64,000 nt of DNA from the IMG/VR virus record IMGVR_UViG_3300028569_000023, positions 1 to 64,000 of that record. One strand, written 5' to 3'. The notes beneath the pieces were generated by a model that had not been told where the DNA came from, searched no databases, and worked only from the letters and a program-made list of their open reading frames with translations. Of the stretch, positions 1 through 15,789 are shown piece after piece. The number at the start of each line of letters is the position of its first letter. Position 1 is the stretch's first letter. Made by a program: the position numbers and the translations under genes. Origin of the DNA: a virus.

Positions 1-18
1 AACACATACCCCCCCCCT

Positions 19-185
19 AGCAATAACCATGCCAAGTAATAGAACTCCGAAGCTCATGCAATAACTATACTAACCGTACAACTGTATGGTATAACAAAGC
101 GTATGCAAGGATCGTACCTGGTACAGAAGTTGCAGAGAGATGCAAGATCTATGCCAATGGTCCATCCTATGCAATAGCCATGCTA
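19..185. promoter_or_regulatory. Array of sigma54 (RpoN) -24/-12-like motifs
   Basis: Consensus TGGCACGNNNNTTGCW. Minus strand: 19-34 TGGCATGGTTATTGCT, 57-72 TAGTATAGTTATTGCA, 104-119 AGGTACGATCCTTGCA, 141-156 TGGCATAGATCTTGCA, 170-185 TAGCATGGCTATTGCA. Plus strand: 119-134 TGGTACAGAAGTTGCA, 158-173 TGGTCCATCCTATGCA. Confidence 0.75.
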
Positions 186-333
186 GCGAAATAATATTTC
201 GTTGTGACGATATGTGACCATATATGTTATATCTAAACAATCCTAACACTCCTATATATACATGATGCGATAACACACCCTGAAGAACTATTAGACACTG
301 ACTAAACTATAACACCACCATAATCCCTAATGA

Positions 334-414
334 TAACAATGCGTTATAGCTAAGTAGTTGATATGTGCTGTCTAATACGTAAACAGGGTATATTCTAATA
401 GTTTCAATTAGTTA
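334..414. promoter_or_regulatory. IHF-consensus sites
   Basis: WATCAANNNNTTR: perfect at 351-363 (minus, TATCAACTACTTA); one mismatch at 334-346 and 402-414 (plus). Confidence 0.5.
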
Positions 415-419
415 AGTCC

Positions 420-435
420 TGGTATGGTATTAGCA
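420..435 (+). promoter_or_regulatory. Candidate sigma54 early promoter
   Basis: TGGTATGGTATTAGCA has correct GG-N10-GC spacing, lies just downstream of IHF-like sites and points into the early transcript. Confidence 0.55.
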
Positions 436-446
436 ACATACCTAAT

Positions 447-700
447 CAGAACACGCTGAACGTTAGCAGAATGGTCCTAGTCGTGAGACTCGGATATCAA
501 ACGAAAAACTCGACACCTAATAAACACTGTAAGTGTGATTCGAGCTAACTATATACCACGCGCTAACACCGCTTAGACGTATAGTTAGATGAGACCGAAA
601 CTCTCATTATAACCTTGCTTAGAATAGAGCTACCGAGGTCACTGGAACTTCGCGATTGTGCGAATGATTCTACACCTTAGGAGAACACCTCAGGCAAGGC
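447..700 (+). ncRNA. Structured leader RNA / candidate ncRNA
   Basis: ORF-free run of consecutive hairpins: AGTC-GTGA-GACT, CTCGA/TCGAG, CTAACTATA/TATAGTTAG, ATGAGA/TCTCAT and a long CCTTGC...GCAAGG domain. Confidence 0.5.
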
Positions 701-703
701 ATA

Positions 704-778
704 ACACGAAAAGCGGGGCTTAGGTCCCGCTTAGACGCGAATGAGTCTATAACGCGTCCTGATGAGTGTAAAGACTTA
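704..778 (+). ncRNA. Hammerhead ribozyme, type II with pseudoknot
   Basis: ACAC-GAAA-stem III (712-719/724-731)-UA cleavage after 733-stem I (GACGCG/CGCGTC)-CUGAUGA (759-765)-GUGU; loop I UGAGUCU pairs with 3' AGACUUA. Confidence 0.93.
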
Positions 779-797
779 ATAACTAAGGAGTTATAAC

Positions 798-947
798 ATG
801 ATCAAACGAGTCGAACAAAGTGACGCAGTTATCTTCGGAAAGACTTTCAAAGTGAAACGTGGCACAAAAATCCTTGTTAAGGGCAAGTTAAGCATTGAAT
901 CTATTGACGCTTTGATTCGCTGCGGCTTTACAATCGTTTATAAATAA
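798..947 (+). CDS. Small early hypothetical protein (49 aa, first gene; not in ORF track)
   Basis: TAAGGAG RBS at 784-790; ORF MIKRVEQSDAVIFGK...VYK*. Confidence 0.75.
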   Translation: MIKRVEQSDAVIFGKTFKVKRGTKILVKGKLSIESIDALIRCGFTIVYK

Positions 948-958
948 GGAGTTATCTT

Positions 959-1159
959 ATGAGAACTATTGAATCTTCACAGTTTCTTAACAATCGTATT
1001 CAAATTGTATATCACGCTGAAAGCGCGGCATATGCTGCAATGGTGAATAATCGGCCTGTTACGGAATACGGCAAGCTTGTACTTGACTCTTCAAAACTTA
1101 ACTTGATAACCTTTGTACGTGAAGCTATTCTTAACAATAAGTTCCCCAAGGTGAAGTAA
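959..1159 (+). CDS. Hypothetical protein
   Basis: TAAGGAG RBS, in early operon. Confidence 0.7.
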   Translation: MRTIESSQFLNNRIQIVYHAESAAYAAMVNNRPVTEYGKLVLDSSKLNLITFVREAILNNKFPKVK

Positions 1160-1223
1160 CATGGTAACGTTTTTGGTTGTCCTATTGATTCTGCACGATG
1201 TCCTATAAGATTAAGGAGATACG

Positions 1224-1598
1224 ATGTCCAATCTTGGAACACTCACAACGAAGCTTTATAAAGAACTTGTTAACAATAGTATGGCTGGAGCTTCGATCAT
1301 GTCCGATGGTAAAATTCCCAAGTCTGGCTTTGCTTTGAGTATTGACCCTGATTTTGAGGAAAAAACAGACGTTCTTAACTTTCACGTTCTCGTAACATAC
1401 GCTTCGAAAGTTGAAAAGTTCCTTAATAAATCAGTAGATAAGGGAATTGGTATCTGGTTCAATGAGTCCGAGGGAATGTTTTATCTTGACGTTATCACTG
1501 TTAAGAAGAGTATTAACGAGGCGATAACACTCGCAAAAATGAACAATCAACTTGCAATCTTCCACCTTAACACAAAACAGGAGATTAAGATTGTATGA
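1224..1598 (+). CDS. Hypothetical phage protein
   Basis: AAGGAG RBS; 124 aa ORF. Confidence 0.75.
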   Translation: MSNLGTLTTKLYKELVNNSMAGASIMSDGKIPKSGFALSIDPDFEEKTDVLNFHVLVTYASKVEKFLNKSVDKGIGIWFNESEGMFYLDVITVKKSINEAITLAKMNNQLAIFHLNTKQEIKIV

Positions 1599-1816
1599 AG
1601 AAAAAATTCTGGTTAATTGCGGATACTTATCATAACGATTATACTAGGGTTTTCGTTGAGGCTATTGACGCTTATAATTTTATTAACAATGCCTTTACAT
1701 TTCCTAATCAGACTGATTTTGTGATTCACGCGAGAGAACTTACCTTGAAAGATCTTGATCTTATCCTAGAGGGAGAGAACGTAGAAGAAACTTGGGAGAA
1801 TGCTAAAAATGTATAA
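1595..1816 (+). CDS. Hypothetical protein
   Basis: ATGA overlap with upstream gene. Confidence 0.65.
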   Translation: MKKKFWLIADTYHNDYTRVFVEAIDAYNFINNAFTFPNQTDFVIHARELTLKDLDLILEGENVEETWENAKNV

Positions 1817-1983
1817 AGTAATTGTTAACGATATTGAACTTCTCTTTAAAGTAGAATCTCCGAAGCTTTTCATTCGTCGCTTTTTAAAGCCGACGCATAT
1901 GGGGCAATGGGTTAAGACTTCGCAAGGTCTTGAATATAACACCACTATTGGCAAGTATTACGTTTTCATTAAGGAGTAGCATT

Positions 1984-2322
1984 ATGTCGGCAAGAACTTA
2001 CAATCTTTATAAACCTAAGAAATACGGTAACGTGCAAGTCCAATTAAGCGAAGATAAAGAAACGATTAAGGTTTATCTTCATGATCATAACGTTCTAAGT
2101 TTCAATCCTCGCACAAAGGAACTTGTTCTTAACGCTTGTGAGTGGCATACAATGACTACTACGACTGCGATTAATACCGCGTTAAAACAAATTGACTTGC
2201 CCTATTATGTATTCAGAAAAGATGGTATGATTTTTGTATCAGGCTTTGAAAACGTTTTCGAGAAGGTACAATTCTTGAGCGCAAAAATGCGAGTCACAAG
2301 CGTAGGCCTTGAAAAGGTATAA
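1984..2322 (+). CDS. Hypothetical phage early protein
   Basis: AAGGAG RBS before ATG at 1984 (start revised from track). Confidence 0.7.
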   Translation: MSARTYNLYKPKKYGNVQVQLSEDKETIKVYLHDHNVLSFNPRTKELVLNACEWHTMTTTTAINTALKQIDLPYYVFRKDGMIFVSGFENVFEKVQFLSAKMRVTSVGLEKV

Positions 2323-2323
2323 C

Positions 2324-2344
2324 TTTCTAGAGAATCTTAATACC
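2324..2344 (+). repeat. Intergenic element copy 1 (TTTCTAGAGAATCTTAATACC)
   Basis: Other copies at 3843, 6912 and 11078. Confidence 0.85.
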
Positions 2345-2386
2345 GCCTTTTCTATAACGTTCTTAACTTAACAATGGGAGAGAATT

Positions 2387-2965
2387 ATGCGAGTTATCAC
2401 ACAACAAACAGAAGTGTTTAAATTCGAGGAACTTGAAGATTCTGTTAAGACAAAGGTTATCGATAAGTTTCGAGACTTTAACTTGGACCATACGTGGTGG
2501 GAATTCTGCGAGGAGAATATTAAGAATGATCTTGAGAAGATCGGCCTTAGACTTGATAAAGCCTACTTTTCAGGCTTTTGTTCCCAAGGTGATGGGGCTT
2601 GTCTAGAAGTAACGCTGATGGATTATGAAAAACTTATCCCTAAACTTAAAGAACGTGGCGTGCCGATGCGTGAAATTGTTCTCGCGAGGAAACTTGGATT
2701 AAGCTTTGATACTAAACACTCGGGACATTATTATCATGAGAATTCATTGCGTTATAACATTGACGCCGATTATTATCCTCATAAACGGCACGAGAAAACT
2801 TGGAATGATCTTGAAGATACTGTTAAGGAACTTGTGCAAGATCTAAGCCGTGATTATTACAGAACACTCGAAAAGGAATACGAGTATTTGACAAGCGATG
2901 AAATGATCAAAGAATCTCTTGAAGCTAATGAATACGAATTTAAGAAAGACGGGAGTATTTTCTAA
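2387..2965 (+). CDS. Hypothetical phage protein
   Basis: 192 aa ORF with GGAG RBS; FSGFCSQGDGA motif. Confidence 0.8.
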   Translation: MRVITQQTEVFKFEELEDSVKTKVIDKFRDFNLDHTWWEFCEENIKNDLEKIGLRLDKAYFSGFCSQGDGACLEVTLMDYEKLIPKLKERGVPMREIVLARKLGLSFDTKHSGHYYHENSLRYNIDADYYPHKRHEKTWNDLEDTVKELVQDLSRDYYRTLEKEYEYLTSDEMIKESLEANEYEFKKDGSIF

Positions 2966-3168
2966 TGGAAATCAAAGGATTAACCGTACAAGAATTAAGT
3001 CTTATTAAATCAGGACTTGAGCTTAATTCGAAGAACTTAGAAAGACTGCGCGATGCCTGTCAAGATTCTGAATTGAATGCTATATTTAGCAATAGACGTA
3101 ACCTTAATAGAAAACTTTACAAAGAAATATCAGACGCTATACTGGAATTAACTGAGGAGAATGAATAA
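2965..3168 (+). CDS. Hypothetical protein
   Basis: TAATG coupling. Confidence 0.65.
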   Translation: MEIKGLTVQELSLIKSGLELNSKNLERLRDACQDSELNAIFSNRRNLNRKLYKEISDAILELTEENE

Positions 3169-3927: not shown

Positions 3928-6015
3928 ATGAGACTAAATAACGCAGTGAATACACTTGAAACTAATGCTCAAACTGTATCGACAAACTTCGGAATTGGCG
4001 ATGTCGGCATGGTTATTGAAATTCTTAGGTCTAAGCTTTACTCTCATCCTATTAGGACTTTGGTACAAGAGTACGCTTGCAATGGCCGCGATGCAATGCG
4101 TGAAGTTAAGTCGCAAGATCGCTTGATTATAACAGCGCCTACAACTTTTAATCCAGAATTCCGAGTGAGGGACTTCGGACCCGGTATCTCGCCCGAACGT
4201 ATTGAGAACGTATTCGTTCTTTACGGCGCGAGCACTAAGCGTAAAGATAATACGCAAACTGGCGGCTTTGGTATCGGTGCTAAATCGGCTTGGAGTTATA
4301 CCGATAGCTTTACCATTACGACATTCATTGACGGCACTAAGCGCGAATACGTGGCGCATATCGGTACTAGTCAAAACGGTAGCCTTGACTTTGTATCAGA
4401 GTCTAAAACAGACGAAAAGAATGGCACAGAGATTAAGATCGCAGTGAATCTTCAAGATATTGTGAAGTTCCAAAAGGCAATTCAACGCGCAGTATTCTTT
4501 TGGGAAGAGAAAGAAAAACCAGAACTTCGTTGTGTACAAGTGCCTGATCTTTCTAAGCAAAACGGTGATGAACTTCGAATTGAGGAACTCCTTATCACCG
4601 ATAAGAGCTTGGATTTTGTCGAGTCTAATAACGGTTACTACGGATCACGCGGTGGTTTCTTTCTGATTGTTGACGGCGTACCGTATCCGATCGATGATGA
4701 ACTTGTTAATGAAAACGAGAGTCTAAAGAACTTTCGTACTAAAGTATCGCACATAGTTAACGTATTTTGTAGCGTACAAACTGGATTTGTTGAAGTAAGT
4801 GCTAATCGTGAGCAACTCTCTGATTCTAAAGCTACCCGCACTGCGCTTAATCTTATCGCAAAACGGTGGACTAATCTTCTCGACAAGTATCATTCCGATA
4901 AGTTCCAAGATTGTAAAACCGTAATGGATTATCTCAAAGCTCAAGCTACATTCGAAAAGGTATTTGTTCGCTCAAGTTTCTCGAATGAAGTGGACGGTTA
5001 TAAGATTAACGATTGTCGAGTTACGAGTGACTTGTTTGATAAGACTAAGTGTACGGAAGTATTCGGAACTTCAAACGATAACTTGAAATACTCTGATAAG
5101 ACTAAGAGAGTATTTCATATCGACGAACTCCAAACGGTTTATATCGATGATTTGAAAAGCGATACGTCAAAGGTCGAGAGGGCAGCAGTGTTGAGGGGAG
5201 CAGTTAAAACCACTGGTAAAAAGAACACGATACTTGTATTATCTAATGGAATACACGTTACTAAATACGATAATAATCACAAGGCTACTAGTACATTCAA
5301 AGCAATGACCGATGCGGAATGGGATAAGCTTGTATTGGATCTTGAAATTAAGAAACTGTCAAGTGTAACTCCCGATTATCGTGCAAAGAAAACAAGATCG
5401 GTTAACTCTTCGGGACAAAAACAAAAAGGCGAGATCACTGTATGGCGCAATAGCAGTGGCAATAAAAAGAATATCGATCTTGATAATGTCACTTTGAAAT
5501 ACGTATATCTTAAACTTGATGATACGGAAAAGCATCGCGAGTTTCAGGGAGTGGTTCATCTTATGGGATACGAGCTTGTACGAATGGGAGACGGATCGAT
5601 TAAGAAGATTAAAGATGACGCTGATTTCATGGCATTTGATAAGTTCGTAGAAAGTCTTAAAGATAATAAGAAGTTAAAGCAAGCTTGTATTGATCGTCAG
5701 TTTATCAATAGTAACTGTTATATTCAGCAACTAGTTCGAATCAAAAAAGAAATCACTAATCCGGACATTAAAAAGATGCTTGATAAAACTAATGTTACAG
5801 CACAAGGTCATTACGAAAACGGCATAGCGCTATCTCCCTCTGTTATTACCCTTGTATCTTCATGGGATGGAATGAAACAAATGGAAAAAGAAATCGAAGA
5901 ATTTGCTAAACTAGTTAAGACAAAATATGCTATCGTTACTAATGTAAATCAATATGCATCCGGTACTGATCAAGAAAACGAAAACATCATCTGGTATATC
6001 AATAACCGTAAATAA
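3928..6015 (+). CDS. rIIA: RIIA-like protein (N-terminal GHKL/HATPase domain)
   Basis: LYSHPIRTLVQEYACNGRDA, VRDFGPGIS, STK...GGFGIGAKS GHKL motifs; followed by an rIIB-like gene. Confidence 0.85.
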   Translation: MRLNNAVNTLETNAQTVSTNFGIGDVGMVIEILRSKLYSHPIRTLVQEYACNGRDAMREVKSQDRLIITAPTTFNPEFRVRDFGPGISPERIENVFVLYGASTKRKDNTQTGGFGIGAKSAWSYTDSFTITTFIDGTKREYVAHIGTSQNGSLDFVSESKTDEKNGTEIKIAVNLQDIVKFQKAIQRAVFFWEEKEKPELRCVQVPDLSKQNGDELRIEELLITDKSLDFVESNNGYYGSRGGFFLIVDGVPYPIDDELVNENESLKNFRTKVSHIVNVFCSVQTGFVEVSANREQLSDSKATRTALNLIAKRWTNLLDKYHSDKFQDCKTVMDYLKAQATFEKVFVRSSFSNEVDGYKINDCRVTSDLFDKTKCTEVFGTSNDNLKYSDKTKRVFHIDELQTVYIDDLKSDTSKVERAAVLRGAVKTTGKKNTILVLSNGIHVTKYDNNHKATSTFKAMTDAEWDKLVLDLEIKKLSSVTPDYRAKKTRSVNSSGQKQKGEITVWRNSSGNKKNIDLDNVTLKYVYLKLDDTEKHREFQGVVHLMGYELVRMGDGSIKKIKDDADFMAFDKFVESLKDNKKLKQACIDRQFINSNCYIQQLVRIKKEITNPDIKKMLDKTNVTAQGHYENGIALSPSVITLVSSWDGMKQMEKEIEEFAKLVKTKYAIVTNVNQYASGTDQENENIIWYINNRK

Positions 6016-6026
6016 GGAGAAACAAA

Positions 6027-6923
6027 ATGTCACACGTAAAATACCATGTCCTACCTAATAGTATCGTTCTTAATTTTCACGGTAAAACAATGTCAATTCC
6101 CCGAGATGACAAGCGTTATGATAAAGTTCTAGGTCTTATTAGGTCGGGACAATTGGCAGATATTCCCGCAGCTATCGATCTGGAAACAATGTTTAAAGGT
6201 ACTAGGATGTCACTGGTGGACGGCGTTGTACAAATCGACGGCGATGAACTCCCGAATGCCCTATCTAAAAAGATTCTACTCCTCAAAGAACAAGACCTAC
6301 CGCTGGATTCGATTGTTAATTTCTGGGATAGACTTAAACTTAATCCAAGCTTTAACTCTCGTAAACAACTGTATGATTTCCTTGAATTTAATCAACACCC
6401 ATTGACAGAGGATGGCAAGTTCATTGCATATCGCGGAGTGACAGAGGATTTCAAAGATATTCATTCTAAGACTTTCGATAATTCAGTAGGCAGTGTTTGC
6501 GAAATGCCCCGCGATAAGGTGGATGATAACCCTAATAATACTTGTAGCTTCGGACTACACGTAGCATCTCACTCATACGCTAAAGGATTTGGACCTAAGC
6601 TTGTAGAAGTTGAAGTAGACCCGGCAGATGTCATAGCAGTGCCTACCGATTATAACGGTACAAAGATGCGCGTCTGTAAATTTAAGGTTATCGCACTGGG
6701 CGAGAACGAACGTACCGAAGTTCTATACGGTCATATCCCTGAATCAGTTGATGAAGAAACAAGCGATGACAACTCTGAGGAACTCGCGTTAATCGAACAA
6801 GAAATGAATGAAGTCGAAACTAGTATCTTGAACTTTGACCCGCGTCATGACAGTATTGATTATCTAATCGAGATGCGCGATAGACTCGAAAGACTTGAAA
6901 ACGAGAAGAGTTTTCTAGAGTAA
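6027..6923 (+). CDS. rIIB: RIIB-like protein
   Basis: NPS...QLYDFL...LTEDGKFIAYRGV, CSFGLHV, VPTDYNGTKMRVC motifs; adjacent to rIIA. Confidence 0.85.
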   Translation: MSHVKYHVLPNSIVLNFHGKTMSIPRDDKRYDKVLGLIRSGQLADIPAAIDLETMFKGTRMSLVDGVVQIDGDELPNALSKKILLLKEQDLPLDSIVNFWDRLKLNPSFNSRKQLYDFLEFNQHPLTEDGKFIAYRGVTEDFKDIHSKTFDNSVGSVCEMPRDKVDDNPNNTCSFGLHVASHSYAKGFGPKLVEVEVDPADVIAVPTDYNGTKMRVCKFKVIALGENERTEVLYGHIPESVDEETSDDNSEELALIEQEMNEVETSILNFDPRHDSIDYLIEMRDRLERLENEKSFLE

Positions 6924-6986
6924 TTTAATACCCTCTAGTTTCTATCCAAACTTTAAGACCGGGCGGGGAACGAAATCTCCGCTCGG
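6912..6986 (+). repeat. Intergenic element copy 3 with downstream hairpin
   Basis: TTTCTAGAGTAATTTAATACCCTC followed by hairpin CCGGGCGGGGA-ACGAAA-TCTCCGCTCGG (6959-6986). Confidence 0.8.
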
Positions 6987-7000
6987 AATAGGAGAATGAA

Positions 7001-7216
7001 ATGGGTTTTCTTAAACAAAAACAATTACCTGAAGACGACGAAAAAGAATTGCGCAGACTCGCGTGGGTTCAACTTCGAAAACATCTTGACTATGAAGCTC
7101 TTGTATTGTCATATGTAGATGCGTATGAAGTAGGGGCGAGATCGGGATTTACAGACGGTTATCTTAAAGGTCTTGAAGTAGGGATCGGTAAAGGATTGGA
7201 GACAAGCGATGAATAA
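7001..7216 (+). CDS. Hypothetical protein
   Basis: AGGAG RBS. Confidence 0.65.
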   Translation: MGFLKQKQLPEDDEKELRRLAWVQLRKHLDYEALVLSYVDAYEVGARSGFTDGYLKGLEVGIGKGLETSDE

Positions 7217-7922
7217 CAAATACGAATTTACAGGACAGACTATCGTATCGTTCGGTATTACTCTAAAACAGATTAGACGTAAATCAGACGGACTAATCGG
7301 TGGATACATTGAGAGCGAGAAGAACTTGAGCTTCGATGGTGACTCTTGGGTTTCCGGTAAAGCTCAGGTTTCAGGTAACGCTCAGGTTTACGGTAACGCT
7401 CAGGTTTCCGGTAACGCTCTGGTTTTCGGTAACGCTCAGGTTTACGGTGACGCTCTGGTTTTCGGTAACGCTCTGGTTTACGGTAACGCTCTGGTTTTCG
7501 GTAACGCTCTGGTTTACGGTGACGCTCTGGTTTTCGGTAACGCTCAGGTTTACGGTGACGCTCAGGTTTCCGGTAACGCTCTGGTTTTCGGTAACGCTCA
7601 GGTTTACGGTAACGCTCTGGTTTTCGGTAACGCTCTGGTTTACGGTGACGCTCTGGTTTTCGGTAACGCTCTGGTTTACGGTGACGCTGTTATTAAGTCC
7701 AAAGCATGTCTAATCGTTCTAGTACTAGGACTTAGCTATAACGTAACAATTACACCGCAGAACGTTTCGATTGGTTGTAAACTGTATGACTATAAGACAC
7801 TGAGGCATATGACGAAAGAACAAGCTATTAACGAAGGTATTTTAGAAAGCGAAGTATCGTTTTATCACGCCATGATAATGGAAAGTCTTAATGAAATGGA
7901 GAGACGCAATGGAACGAAATAA
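7209..7922 (+). CDS. Hexapeptide-repeat (beta-helix) phage protein
   Basis: GGYIESEKNL followed by ~19 G[ND]A[LQ]V[FYS] repeats and C-terminal IGC motif. Confidence 0.85.
   Translation: MNNKYEFTGQTIVSFGITLKQIRRKSDGLIGGYIESEKNLSFDGDSWVSGKAQVSGNAQVYGNAQVSGNALVFGNAQVYGDALVFGNALVYGNALVFGNALVYGDALVFGNAQVYGDAQVSGNALVFGNAQVYGNALVFGNALVYGDALVFGNALVYGDAVIKSKACLIVLVLGLSYNVTITPQNVSIGCKLYDYKTLRHMTKEQAINEGILESEVSFYHAMIMESLNEMERRNGTK
7338..7688 (+). repeat. 18-bp coding tandem repeat (~19.5 units)
   Basis: Near-identical units such as GGTAACGCTCTGGTTTTC. Confidence 0.95.
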
Positions 7923-11084: not shown

Positions 11085-11132
11085 AGAATCTTGATACCCT
11101 GTAGTTTCTATCTGTATTTCCAGATCGGGCGG
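11078..11132 (+). repeat. Intergenic element copy 4
   Basis: TTTCTAGAGAATCTTGATACCCTGTAGTTTCTATC...TCGGGCGG. Confidence 0.8.
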
Positions 11133-11165
11133 CTAACTGAAAAAGTTAGTCGCTCTTTTCATTTC
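11127..11165 (+). terminator. Rho-independent terminator ending the first early block
   Basis: GGGCGGCTAACT-GAAAA-AGTTAGTCGCTC followed by TTTTCATTT. Confidence 0.75.
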
Positions 11166-11411: not shown

Positions 11412-11440
11412 TTGACAGAAATAACGAATTACTATATGAT
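11412..11440 (+). promoter_or_regulatory. Sigma70 promoter
   Basis: TTGACA-N17-TATGAT. Confidence 0.75.
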
Positions 11441-15190: not shown

Positions 15191-15244
15191 GTTTCTTTTA
15201 AATAATCACTTGCTAAATCTAAAGAAGTGTTGTATAATAAGATT

Positions 15245-15622
15245 ATGAACATGGATAGAGCTAAAGAACTAGCGAGAAAGACATCGCTACTATCCGATCA
15301 TAAAAGCCATAAAATGGCGGCGGTTATTGTCAAAGGAAAATCAGTACTTGCGGCACGTCCGAATTGGCAGTTCAAGACTCATCCTGAATATCATCGCATC
15401 GACCAACTCAAAACTTTACATGCGGAATCTTCTGCAATTTTGTCATGCCGACATAAGAACGATCTCAGAGGTTCTACCATTGTCGTATTCAGATCTACCA
15501 AGGACGGTAGACTGGCAATGTCGAAGCCTTGCGAAGCTTGCACTAAGCTTATGAAGATATATGGTATTAAGAAAGTCGTTTATACGAATGGGAATGAATG
15601 GCACGAGGAGAAAGTGGTATGA
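15245..15622 (+). CDS. Cytidine/dCMP deaminase-family Zn protein (leaderless)
   Basis: HAE and SKPCEAC motifs; promoter TTGCTA-N17-TATAAT at 15210-15238. Confidence 0.85.
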   Translation: MNMDRAKELARKTSLLSDHKSHKMAAVIVKGKSVLAARPNWQFKTHPEYHRIDQLKTLHAESSAILSCRHKNDLRGSTIVVFRSTKDGRLAMSKPCEACTKLMKIYGIKKVVYTNGNEWHEEKVV

Positions 15623-15789
15623 GTAATAAATCTATTTTACTAGACATTAGTTCGTTGTTTTCAGGAATGATGATCGGTACTGCAATTGGGAATATGCTAT
15701 TTCATGGAATTTCACATAAAGGTTTAGTAATAATTGTATTAAGTTTTTTCGTATTAATGCTTAATATTAGGATAAGGCGAATACTATGA
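15619..15789 (+). CDS. Small membrane protein
   Basis: Two hydrophobic helices; ATGA coupling. Confidence 0.55.
   Translation: MSNKSILLDISSLFSGMMIGTAIGNMLFHGISHKGLVIIVLSFFVLMLNIRIRRIL

Follow-up and report, generated by a model that had tools for sequence, protein, structure and literature searches.

Conserved arrays of sigma-54-type boxes in the gap between early and late genes of a lake-water phage and its relatives

The box array and its place in the genome

The record IMGVR_UViG_3300028569_000023 represents a lake-water phage of 86,035 bp, and the window analyzed here is its first 64 kb (64,000 nucleotides). Positions 19–185 of the window contain seven 16-mers that follow the pattern T(G/A)G(C/T)A(C/T)-N5-(T/A)TGC(A/T), which we number from left to right. 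A C9 homopolymer at 9–17, which is a G tract on the late-gene strand and is C8 in Logan contigs, adjoins box 1 (TGGCATGGTTATTGCT; 19–34, minus strand), a near-perfect, late-facing match that scores 22.3 bits with a matrix derived from relatives. Box 2 (57–72, minus strand; 12.7 bits) is an AG-N10-GC variant. Box 3 (AGGTACGATCCTTGCA; 104–119, minus strand; 14.8 bits) lies back-to-back with the early-facing box 4 (TGGTACAGAAGTTGCA; 119–134, plus strand; 16.6 bits), the two overlapping by one base. A second back-to-back pair, separated by 1 nt, is made up of the near-perfect box 5 (TGGCATAGATCTTGCA; 141–156, minus strand; 22.5 bits) and the weak box 6 (TGGTCCATCCTATGCA; 158–173, plus strand), which agrees with the consensus at 8 of 11 positions and falls below 8 bits. 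Box 7 (170–185, minus strand; 15.0 bits) is again an AG-N10-GC variant. GG-N10-GC is kept in five of the seven boxes and replaced by AG in two, and five boxes point leftwards. The original prediction had described exactly this arrangement, and every element of it was borne out by the sequence: the seven 16-mers with their coordinates and orientations, the two near-perfect boxes, the split into five GG-N10-GC and two AG-N10-GC forms, the five leftward boxes and the two back-to-back pairs.

To the right of the array, an A+T-rich spacer (186–419; GC 0.329, versus 0.417 for 18–185 and 0.395 genome-wide) leads to a separate, early-facing sigma-54-type box (TGGTATGGTATTAGCA; 420–435, plus strand; 14.0 bits), a candidate promoter whose first downstream ATG is preceded by a 363-nt leader. 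Immediately upstream of it, a putative IHF-like element (TTTCAATTAGTTA; 401–413, plus strand) was spotted by eye. Read from the late side, the order of the module is a G/C homopolymer, a two-way box cluster, an A+T-rich spacer and a separate box with an IHF-like element. The plus strand of the window has no 11-of-12 sigma-70-type match before 11412, and sigma-70-type matches are not enriched (35, versus 37.1 ± 6.2 in shuffled sequence). A terminator-like hairpin is found at 11127–11155. A search of window positions 1–1200 against Rfam gave no match at E up to 1.

The array had been placed at the left end of the genome, yet this end is a joint of the assembly. Positions 1–135 recur at 85902–86035 with 99% identity, the C homopolymer being shorter by one, and Logan contigs of 85,645 bp from two lake-water runs, which may be the record's own source, are continuous across window position 1. 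The first 3000 positions of the window map inside these contigs at 4404–7402, and positions 81–409 are unchanged in a Logan contig from a third run belonging to a different study. The overlap is therefore an assembly joint on a circular or concatemeric map and does not demonstrate a genome terminus. We set aside a location at the physical genome end as undemonstrated, because the length of the C homopolymer differs between the two copies of the overlap and the Logan assembly passes through. The boxes also lie mid-contig in three array-bearing records that IMG/VR flags for terminal repeats. Among the contigs of the family, 15 of 40 end within 620 bp, near the array, and several start exactly inside the G homopolymer; the homopolymer beside the array is a likely cause of these breaks. 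With no genome end demonstrated at the array, the suggestion that it serves as a tether during genome entry is baseless here, and the analysis removes the false premise of a terminal array for this window.

On the closed map, the array lies within a 932-bp divergent gap that separates early and late genes. The early block runs rightward from 798, the start of the first early gene, and the late/packaging block runs leftward from 85766, across the assembly joint. At the head of the late/terminase block is a 188-aa ORF (85200–85766, minus strand) whose start lies about 153 bp from box 1 and which is followed by protease, endolysin, terminase (78972–80411) and portal genes. The leftward boxes, described originally as pointing away from all visible genes, are thus oriented towards the late genes and face this ORF across the joint. 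The late genes have a late-type motif of their own, TAACAACTAT, of which the genome holds 11 exact copies; one of them (85818–85827, minus strand) lies between the array and the 188-aa ORF. Real genes beyond the window start for the leftward sites, which the original prediction had itself named as evidence against it, are therefore present, although they carry their own late-type motif.

Enrichment, conservation and identity of the motif

With GG and GC fixed and at least 8 of the 11 consensus positions matched, a scan of the 85.9-kb genome gave 29 matches, versus 15.6 ± 3.8 in 200 dinucleotide shuffles. The densest 170 bp contained five of these matches, while the densest 170 bp of the shuffles contained one (111 cases), two (85) or three (4). 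When a matrix was derived from 59 sites in 13 relatives, with the genome itself left out, it found 18 matches scoring 8 bits or more across both strands, of which six fall within 17–187 and one at 418–437. The five highest scores in the genome (22.5, 22.3, 16.6, 15.0 and 14.8 bits) are all within the array. A matrix scan for RpoN sites set against shuffled sequence had been put forward as the check on the original prediction, and, in the consensus scan, five sites per 170 bp against a maximum of three in 200 shuffles speak for it. As the original prediction held, this density far exceeds the need of one promoter. The boxes are nevertheless weaker than those of the relatives, with two AG variants and one box below 8 bits.

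The terminase of the phage has more than 1,700 metagenomic homologues. A scan of IMG/VR with the single terminase protein produced no match, and an alignment of 27 homologues retrieved 80 IMG/VR loci with 46–66% identity. At least four boxes within 300 bp are present in 17 of the 80 loci; all 17 clusters are located 2.7–6.3 kb upstream of the terminase gene, and none of the 80 loci has such a cluster elsewhere. The gap that holds the array in the relatives is the same divergent gap as in our phage, and the first gene on its late side encodes a conserved protein of about 180 aa, the profile of which matches the I-TevI GIY-YIG catalytic domain with an E value of 5e-4 (one member of the family reaches 21.7 bits against the Pfam cut-off of 22.6). 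A hidden Markov model of this GIY-YIG-like gene detected it in 40 of the 80 loci, 25 of which have at least 800 bp of upstream sequence. Among these 25, at least four boxes occur upstream of the gene in 14 and a run of at least six G in 17, while 11 have fewer than three boxes. In 10 of the 13 relatives examined, the array is followed by 6 to 12 consecutive G, and array-bearing phages have their cluster no further than about 240 bp from the G tract. Positions 19–185 are one copy of a conserved non-coding module. The original prediction had proposed to look for the array at the termini of related phages, and these 14 of 25 carry it in the divergent gap.

Many boxes of the relatives are perfect copies of TGGCAC-N5-TTGCA, and the box halves are constant while the spacers vary by phage. 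Two near-identical relatives, L013 and L023, differ by one duplicated box, and in two others the same gap holds different repeats, namely five direct repeats of about 22 bp in L047 and about eight copies of TGCAAT in L082. Early-facing boxes make up 56 of the 83 in 13 relatives versus three of eight in our phage, where the other five are late-facing. Orientation is therefore not conserved, although this would be expected for promoters. When window positions 1–3000 and two array-bearing loci were compared with cultured phages by blastn, no match was obtained.

The motif has the strict spacer and the asymmetry of a sigma-54-type −24/−12 box, as the original prediction held. In the 80 related loci together with the genome itself (1.095 Mb), TGGCA-N6-TTGCA occurs 41 times, whereas every other spacing of TGGCA and TTGCA from 0 to 30 occurs 0–5 times, with the exception of 25 nt (11 occurrences). 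Pairs of the same half are few in this DNA (four TGGCA-N6-TGGCA and one TTGCA-N6-TTGCA), and the reversed order of the halves has no spacing peak. When the arrays of 14 phages were anchored on TTGC only (101 anchors), the other half emerged at the sigma-54 distance as T (.53), G (.66), G (.71), C (.50), A (.70), Y (.80), R, G, and the logo has no conservation beyond the 16–17 nt of the box. The GG and GC doublets are 10 nt apart in TGGCAC-N5-TTGCW, as in sigma-54 sites. The array motif matches the sigma-54 consensus as quoted in the accessible part of PMC12316311 and, compared by eye, is similar to the Salmonella sites defined by ChIP in Table 3 of PMC3844500, in the portion of that article available.

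To gauge how widespread such pairs are, we counted DNA with two perfect boxes within 30 nt. The raw counts, which are not normalized per base, are at least 120 stretches in IMG/VR, compared with two for the pattern read backwards and four for the pattern with an N6 spacer; among 401 bacterial genomes from one phylum, the raw count is one. The 120 listed loci of these at least 120 form a wide set that is biased, since it was selected by the two-perfect-box query itself. At least three boxes (each with at least 9 of 11 positions) within 400 bp are found in 102 of the 120 listed loci, and the extremes are 15 boxes in 400 bp and, in locus L100, 45 boxes in 6.5 kb. Of the 120 listed loci, 98 are connected by one or more shared proteins, and about 42–47 of them form one group, so the breadth may reflect one large phage lineage; we have accordingly toned down the notion that the carriers are unrelated phages. 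In the large group, the layout, which is the same as in our phage, runs from early genes through the array and a G-rich run to genes for an AT-hook protein, endolysin, terminase and portal. Its array-side gene is unrelated to that of our phage, the comparison between the two groups giving an hhalign probability of 0.1%. A terminase homologue was identified in 51 of the 120 listed loci, with the array upstream of its start in all 51, by 850–5700 bp; the 99 ORFs of the remaining 69 listed loci include a further 17 terminase matches.

Among cultured phages, Alteromonas phage V22 (MN877442) has nine box matches versus one for the control pattern. Four of its boxes lie within 376 bp (69888–70263), in a 1.6-kb gene-free block between convergent genes and 70 kb from the terminase gene, which sits at position 1 of the record. 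The available part of the V22 paper does not mention promoters. None of the five cultured phages with the nearest terminases has a box cluster. As a cultured carrier of a small cluster, V22 could offer an entry to wet-lab work.

Activator, host and possible functions of the array

To our knowledge, sigma-54 polymerase is alone among the bacterial polymerase forms in needing an ATP-driven activator to start. The genome of our phage has no match to the sigma-54 activator domain (PF00158) at E up to 1, and none of 36 further records with arrays, of which 15 are at least 90% complete, has one over the Pfam cut-off; a single match below the cut-off reached 17.3 bits. A search of the phage itself for the sigma-54 DNA-binding domain (Sigma54_DBD, PF04552) found nothing at E up to 10. 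The phage genes thus do not supply the activator that a functional sigma-54 promoter needs. With no PF00158 protein from the phage, only an activator of the host could bring about firing, an odd arrangement for the early genes of a phage. As for the host, three metagenome bins with contigs of relatives all have Sigma54_DBD over the cut-off, although binning is no proof of a host, and the phage loci in these bins have no cluster within 8 kb of the terminase gene. A host among the Bdellovibrionota, as had been proposed, found no backing: the nearest cultured terminase, that of a Silvanigrella phage, has 28% identity, and the record of that phage has four box matches versus three for the control and no cluster. 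We have therefore dropped this assignment.

The separate box is a candidate for a working promoter. An early-facing separate box is present in 8 of 14 phages including our own, 255–431 bp from the G tract, and it precedes an ATG by 25 nt in L035 and by about 75 nt in L018. By eye, TTCAAT-N3/4-TTA stands before the separate box in our phage, L011 and L018, with variants in L007 and L013, and no clear copy was seen in L014, L032 and L035. The earlier idea of a loading zone that feeds a promoter at 420 gains from this conserved box and from its distance to the ATG in two phages. The lack of 11-of-12 sigma-70-type matches on the plus strand before 11412 also favours a promoter at the separate box.

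The motif is alike in phages of very different GC with differing neighbour genes, which makes a conserved host factor the best explanation, and from the sequence we predict that the boxes are bound by host sigma-54, free or as holoenzyme. Such a factor is not universal, as Actinomycetota are without sigma-54 according to the accessible part of PMC12316311. Our preferred reading, to which we assign a rough probability of 0.4, is that the array is a docking hub for host sigma-54 polymerase, in which the first early operon would probably be transcribed from the separate box and the cluster would be a set of auxiliary sites. Host sigma-54, free or within sigma-54 RNA polymerase, would occupy the boxes, and the polymerase would rest on them as a silent, stable closed complex. 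A host enhancer-binding ATPase, invoked because the phage encodes no activator, would then fire the separate box as the working promoter of the first early operon. The cluster could retain polymerase or pass it to the nearby promoter, and it might also compete with that promoter. As the boxes are 17–38 bp apart and holoenzyme could not sit on all of them simultaneously, the cluster would act through capture probability and not through stoichiometric loading. The fixed architecture of G tract, cluster, A+T-rich spacer and separate box is more in keeping with a control element tied to its position than with a free sponge. The sequences show the motif with its spacing, asymmetry, enrichment, conservation and position, and the lack of an activator gene in the phage; binding by sigma-54, firing of the separate box and the contribution of the cluster are all steps that we infer. 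Weighing against this reading are the missing phage activator, the unconserved orientation, the comparatively weak boxes and the 363-nt leader of our phage, the 11 of 25 relatives with fewer than three boxes, the other repeats in L047 and L082, the shared proteins that link 98 of the 120 listed loci, and the five cultured phages with the nearest terminases and no cluster.

A serious rival is that the boxes are sites of a phage-encoded DNA-binding protein, forming origin iterons, a packaging site or an early/late operator array, with the likeness to sigma-54 sites coincidental or a product of mimicry. We regard it as unlikely, yet it carries weight given that no activator was found, that orientation is mixed, that packing is tight and that some relatives have other repeats. 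Boxes packed at 15–28 bp fit a small protein better than a holoenzyme, and the different repeats of L047 and L082 in the same gap are what one would expect of a site array for a variable, phage-chosen protein. The adjoining A+T-rich stretch, the position upstream of the terminase in all 51 listed wide-set loci that have one, and the shared proteins that join 98 of the 120 listed loci also suit this explanation. Sites of phage-encoded binders usually drift along with the binder, whereas here the spacing and asymmetry of the motif are identical at 48–66% terminase identity and from 33 to 64% GC. The irregular spacing in both directions is unlike direct iterons, and an iteron origin is matched by the A+T-rich neighbour but not by the mixed orientation, the differing neighbour genes or a motif common to divergent phages. 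The unrelated genes beside the array in two groups argue against a linked binder gene, which we rejected as a candidate on the hhalign result. Further points against a phage-encoded binder are the absence of a sigma-54 DNA-binding domain in searches of the phage, the five cultured phages with the nearest terminases but no clusters, the distance of the V22 cluster from its terminase gene, and the low odds, by a rough estimate, that chance would reproduce 11 positions of a bipartite consensus together with its correct spacer. Less probable is the suggestion, made already in the original prediction, of a DNA sponge, by which hundreds of replicated copies of seven or eight boxes would soak up a small sigma-54 pool and so silence host responses or free core polymerase. 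The number of boxes, beyond any promoter's need and in both directions, the extremes of the wide set (L100 and the 15 boxes in 400 bp) and the failure to find a phage activator would all suit a sponge. It would also draw on the stable silent closed complexes of sigma-54 holoenzyme described in the accessible portion of PMC3844500, and on the ability of repeated decoy sites to sequester a yeast transcription factor reported in that of PMC3322331. A sponge would need no fixed place, though, and the cluster keeps its place, G tract and separate box throughout the family; overlapping boxes add little capacity, and those of our phage are weaker than those of its relatives.

Two further explanations fare worse. 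The boxes might be promoters of an unrecognised RNA polymerase or sigma-like factor, encoded by the phage or carried in the virion and using a sigma-54-like motif, which we consider very improbable even though G033 has 14 of its 17 boxes on one strand over 48 kb, some of them 11–16 nt before an ATG, and a 1706-aa protein of the virion block has no sequence match to a family or PDB entry. Six proteins that were scanned gave no polymerase or sigma signal, the Sigma54_DBD search described above was empty, and the exact host consensus in many lineages is not expected of a phage-specific enzyme; nor do we know of phage-polymerase promoters arranged as tight two-way arrays. A hidden polymerase in the 1706-aa protein was set aside at the sequence level, where neither a family nor a PDB match was obtained. 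That the array is a functionless chance product of local duplication would explain why boxes 1, 2 and 7 have spacer letters in common and why L013 and L023 differ by one duplicated box. The observed cluster size, however, was reached by none of 200 shuffles, the cluster is kept in 14 of 25 relatives with constant halves and varying spacers, and at least 120 stretches stand against two and four for the controls. Shuffles, relatives and control patterns together leave chance duplication close to refuted.

If the array is a docking hub, a wider and doubtful though possible view is that many phage lineages keep an activator-less sigma-54 hub that would capture polymerase at the early/late switch point. 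Sigma-54 governs stress, nitrogen and envelope responses, and the hub could serve to time the first operon by the stress or nutrient state of the host, or to withdraw sigma-54. Were this true, it would be a hijack of an alternative sigma factor at the level of DNA and a new kind of phage–host interface, either as a promoter system that reads the state of the host or as a factor sink. We found no description of sigma-54 box arrays in phages in open-access papers and preprints.

Comparison with known systems

The closest likeness is to bacterial sigma-54 −24/−12 promoters, which, in the accessible parts of PMC3844500 and PMC12316311, have the same two-part motif, fixed spacer and asymmetry; ChIP in Salmonella has also mapped sites of this kind that are silent or lie inside genes. 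The separate box with its IHF-like element and upstream sites resembles a sigma-54 promoter with an upstream region, and secondary sites near a promoter have been suggested, in the available portion of PMC3844500, to speed the search of the polymerase or to repress. The phage arrays differ from these promoters in having seven to eight or more boxes, 17–38 bp apart and in both directions; in bacteria, tandem box pairs are rare, being present in one of the 401 genomes. They also come without an activator gene or a recognisable activator site, and they are known here from sequence.

The early promoters A1–A3 of phage T7 are clustered sigma-70 promoters that all face the early genes and fire without an activator. 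The phage array is similar in packing several sites for host polymerase before the first early genes, and differs in that its boxes point both ways and belong to an activator-dependent class. A titration of a transcription component by many non-productive sites has parallels in 6S RNA, a promoter mimic that sequesters sigma-70 holoenzyme, and in synthetic decoys. In the latter, a yeast system presented in the accessible part of PMC3322331, repeated decoy sites sequester a transcription factor. A natural DNA decoy for a sigma factor was not found in open-access papers and preprints, and a pure decoy is disfavoured by the constant place of the array. The iterons of the lambda origin, the R sites of lambda cosB with IHF and the hexamers of P1 pac are phage-specific motifs bound by phage proteins. 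Like the array, they consist of short repeats that lie in a non-coding gap and have an A+T-rich stretch, an IHF-like element and the terminase block nearby; the difference is that here a single host-type consensus is common to divergent phages.

The late-side gene and the homopolymer bordering the array

The first late-side gene adjoining the seven-box sigma-54-type array lies outside the window, on the minus strand at genome positions 85200-85766 (15200-15766 of locus L003), and belongs to a conserved family of about 180 amino acids with a profile match to the GIY-YIG catalytic domain of I-TevI (E 5e-4). Members of this GIY-YIG-like family were found in 40 of the 80 family loci, including relatives that have no sigma-54-type array. 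For a homing-type nuclease, such constancy of position is unusual.

The array is directly bordered by a G/C homopolymer of 6-12 nucleotides, located at window 9-17 and at the equivalent place in relatives such as loci L070, L019 and L015; in relatives, letters resembling TAGGTTACTTTG often come next. A number of contigs start exactly within this homopolymer, and its length is unequal between the two ends of the present record. The tract probably marks a technical break in assembly, but its conservation means that it may also have a function.

Candidate transcription signals in the early region

We scanned window 1-1200, which covers the spans 447-733 and 704-778, against Rfam, and no family was matched at E-values up to 1. 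Going rightward into the early genes, the first strong terminator-like hairpin on the plus strand is located at 11127-11155, and the first sigma-70-type match with 11 of 12 positions, also on the plus strand, at 11412-11440. Given where these two features lie, the early genes of the first 10 kb, from 798 to about 11100, may form a single transcription unit fed from the hub, the proposed docking module that includes the array and a separate box at 420-435 facing the early operon. Within the same region, the 24 nucleotides at 2321-2344 are placed a second time in the Logan contigs from two runs, which also have a loose end of 255 nt at 2344.

Repeat and box layouts in other viruses

In locus L047, a relative with 53% terminase identity, the equivalent gap contains no sigma-54-type boxes but five direct repeats of about 22 bp with a TTCAAT...TTA core (7160-7400). 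Locus L082 carries about eight copies of TGCAAT at 5150-5230. One 147.5-kb viral contig (region L100) contains 45 boxes with at least 9 of 11 matching positions within 6.5 kb that has few ORFs, among them same-direction runs of 9 and 10. The 48.5-kb viral record G033 (L225-L227) has 14 of its 17 sigma-54-type boxes on one strand, scattered genome-wide, and some lie 11-16 nt upstream of an ATG; from this layout, they look like a dispersed promoter set and not an array. Among cultured phages, four sigma-54-type boxes lie in Alteromonas phage V22 inside a gene-free block of 1.6 kb flanked by convergent genes (MN877442, 69366-70986; L212), a block that the consulted passages of the V22 paper do not discuss.
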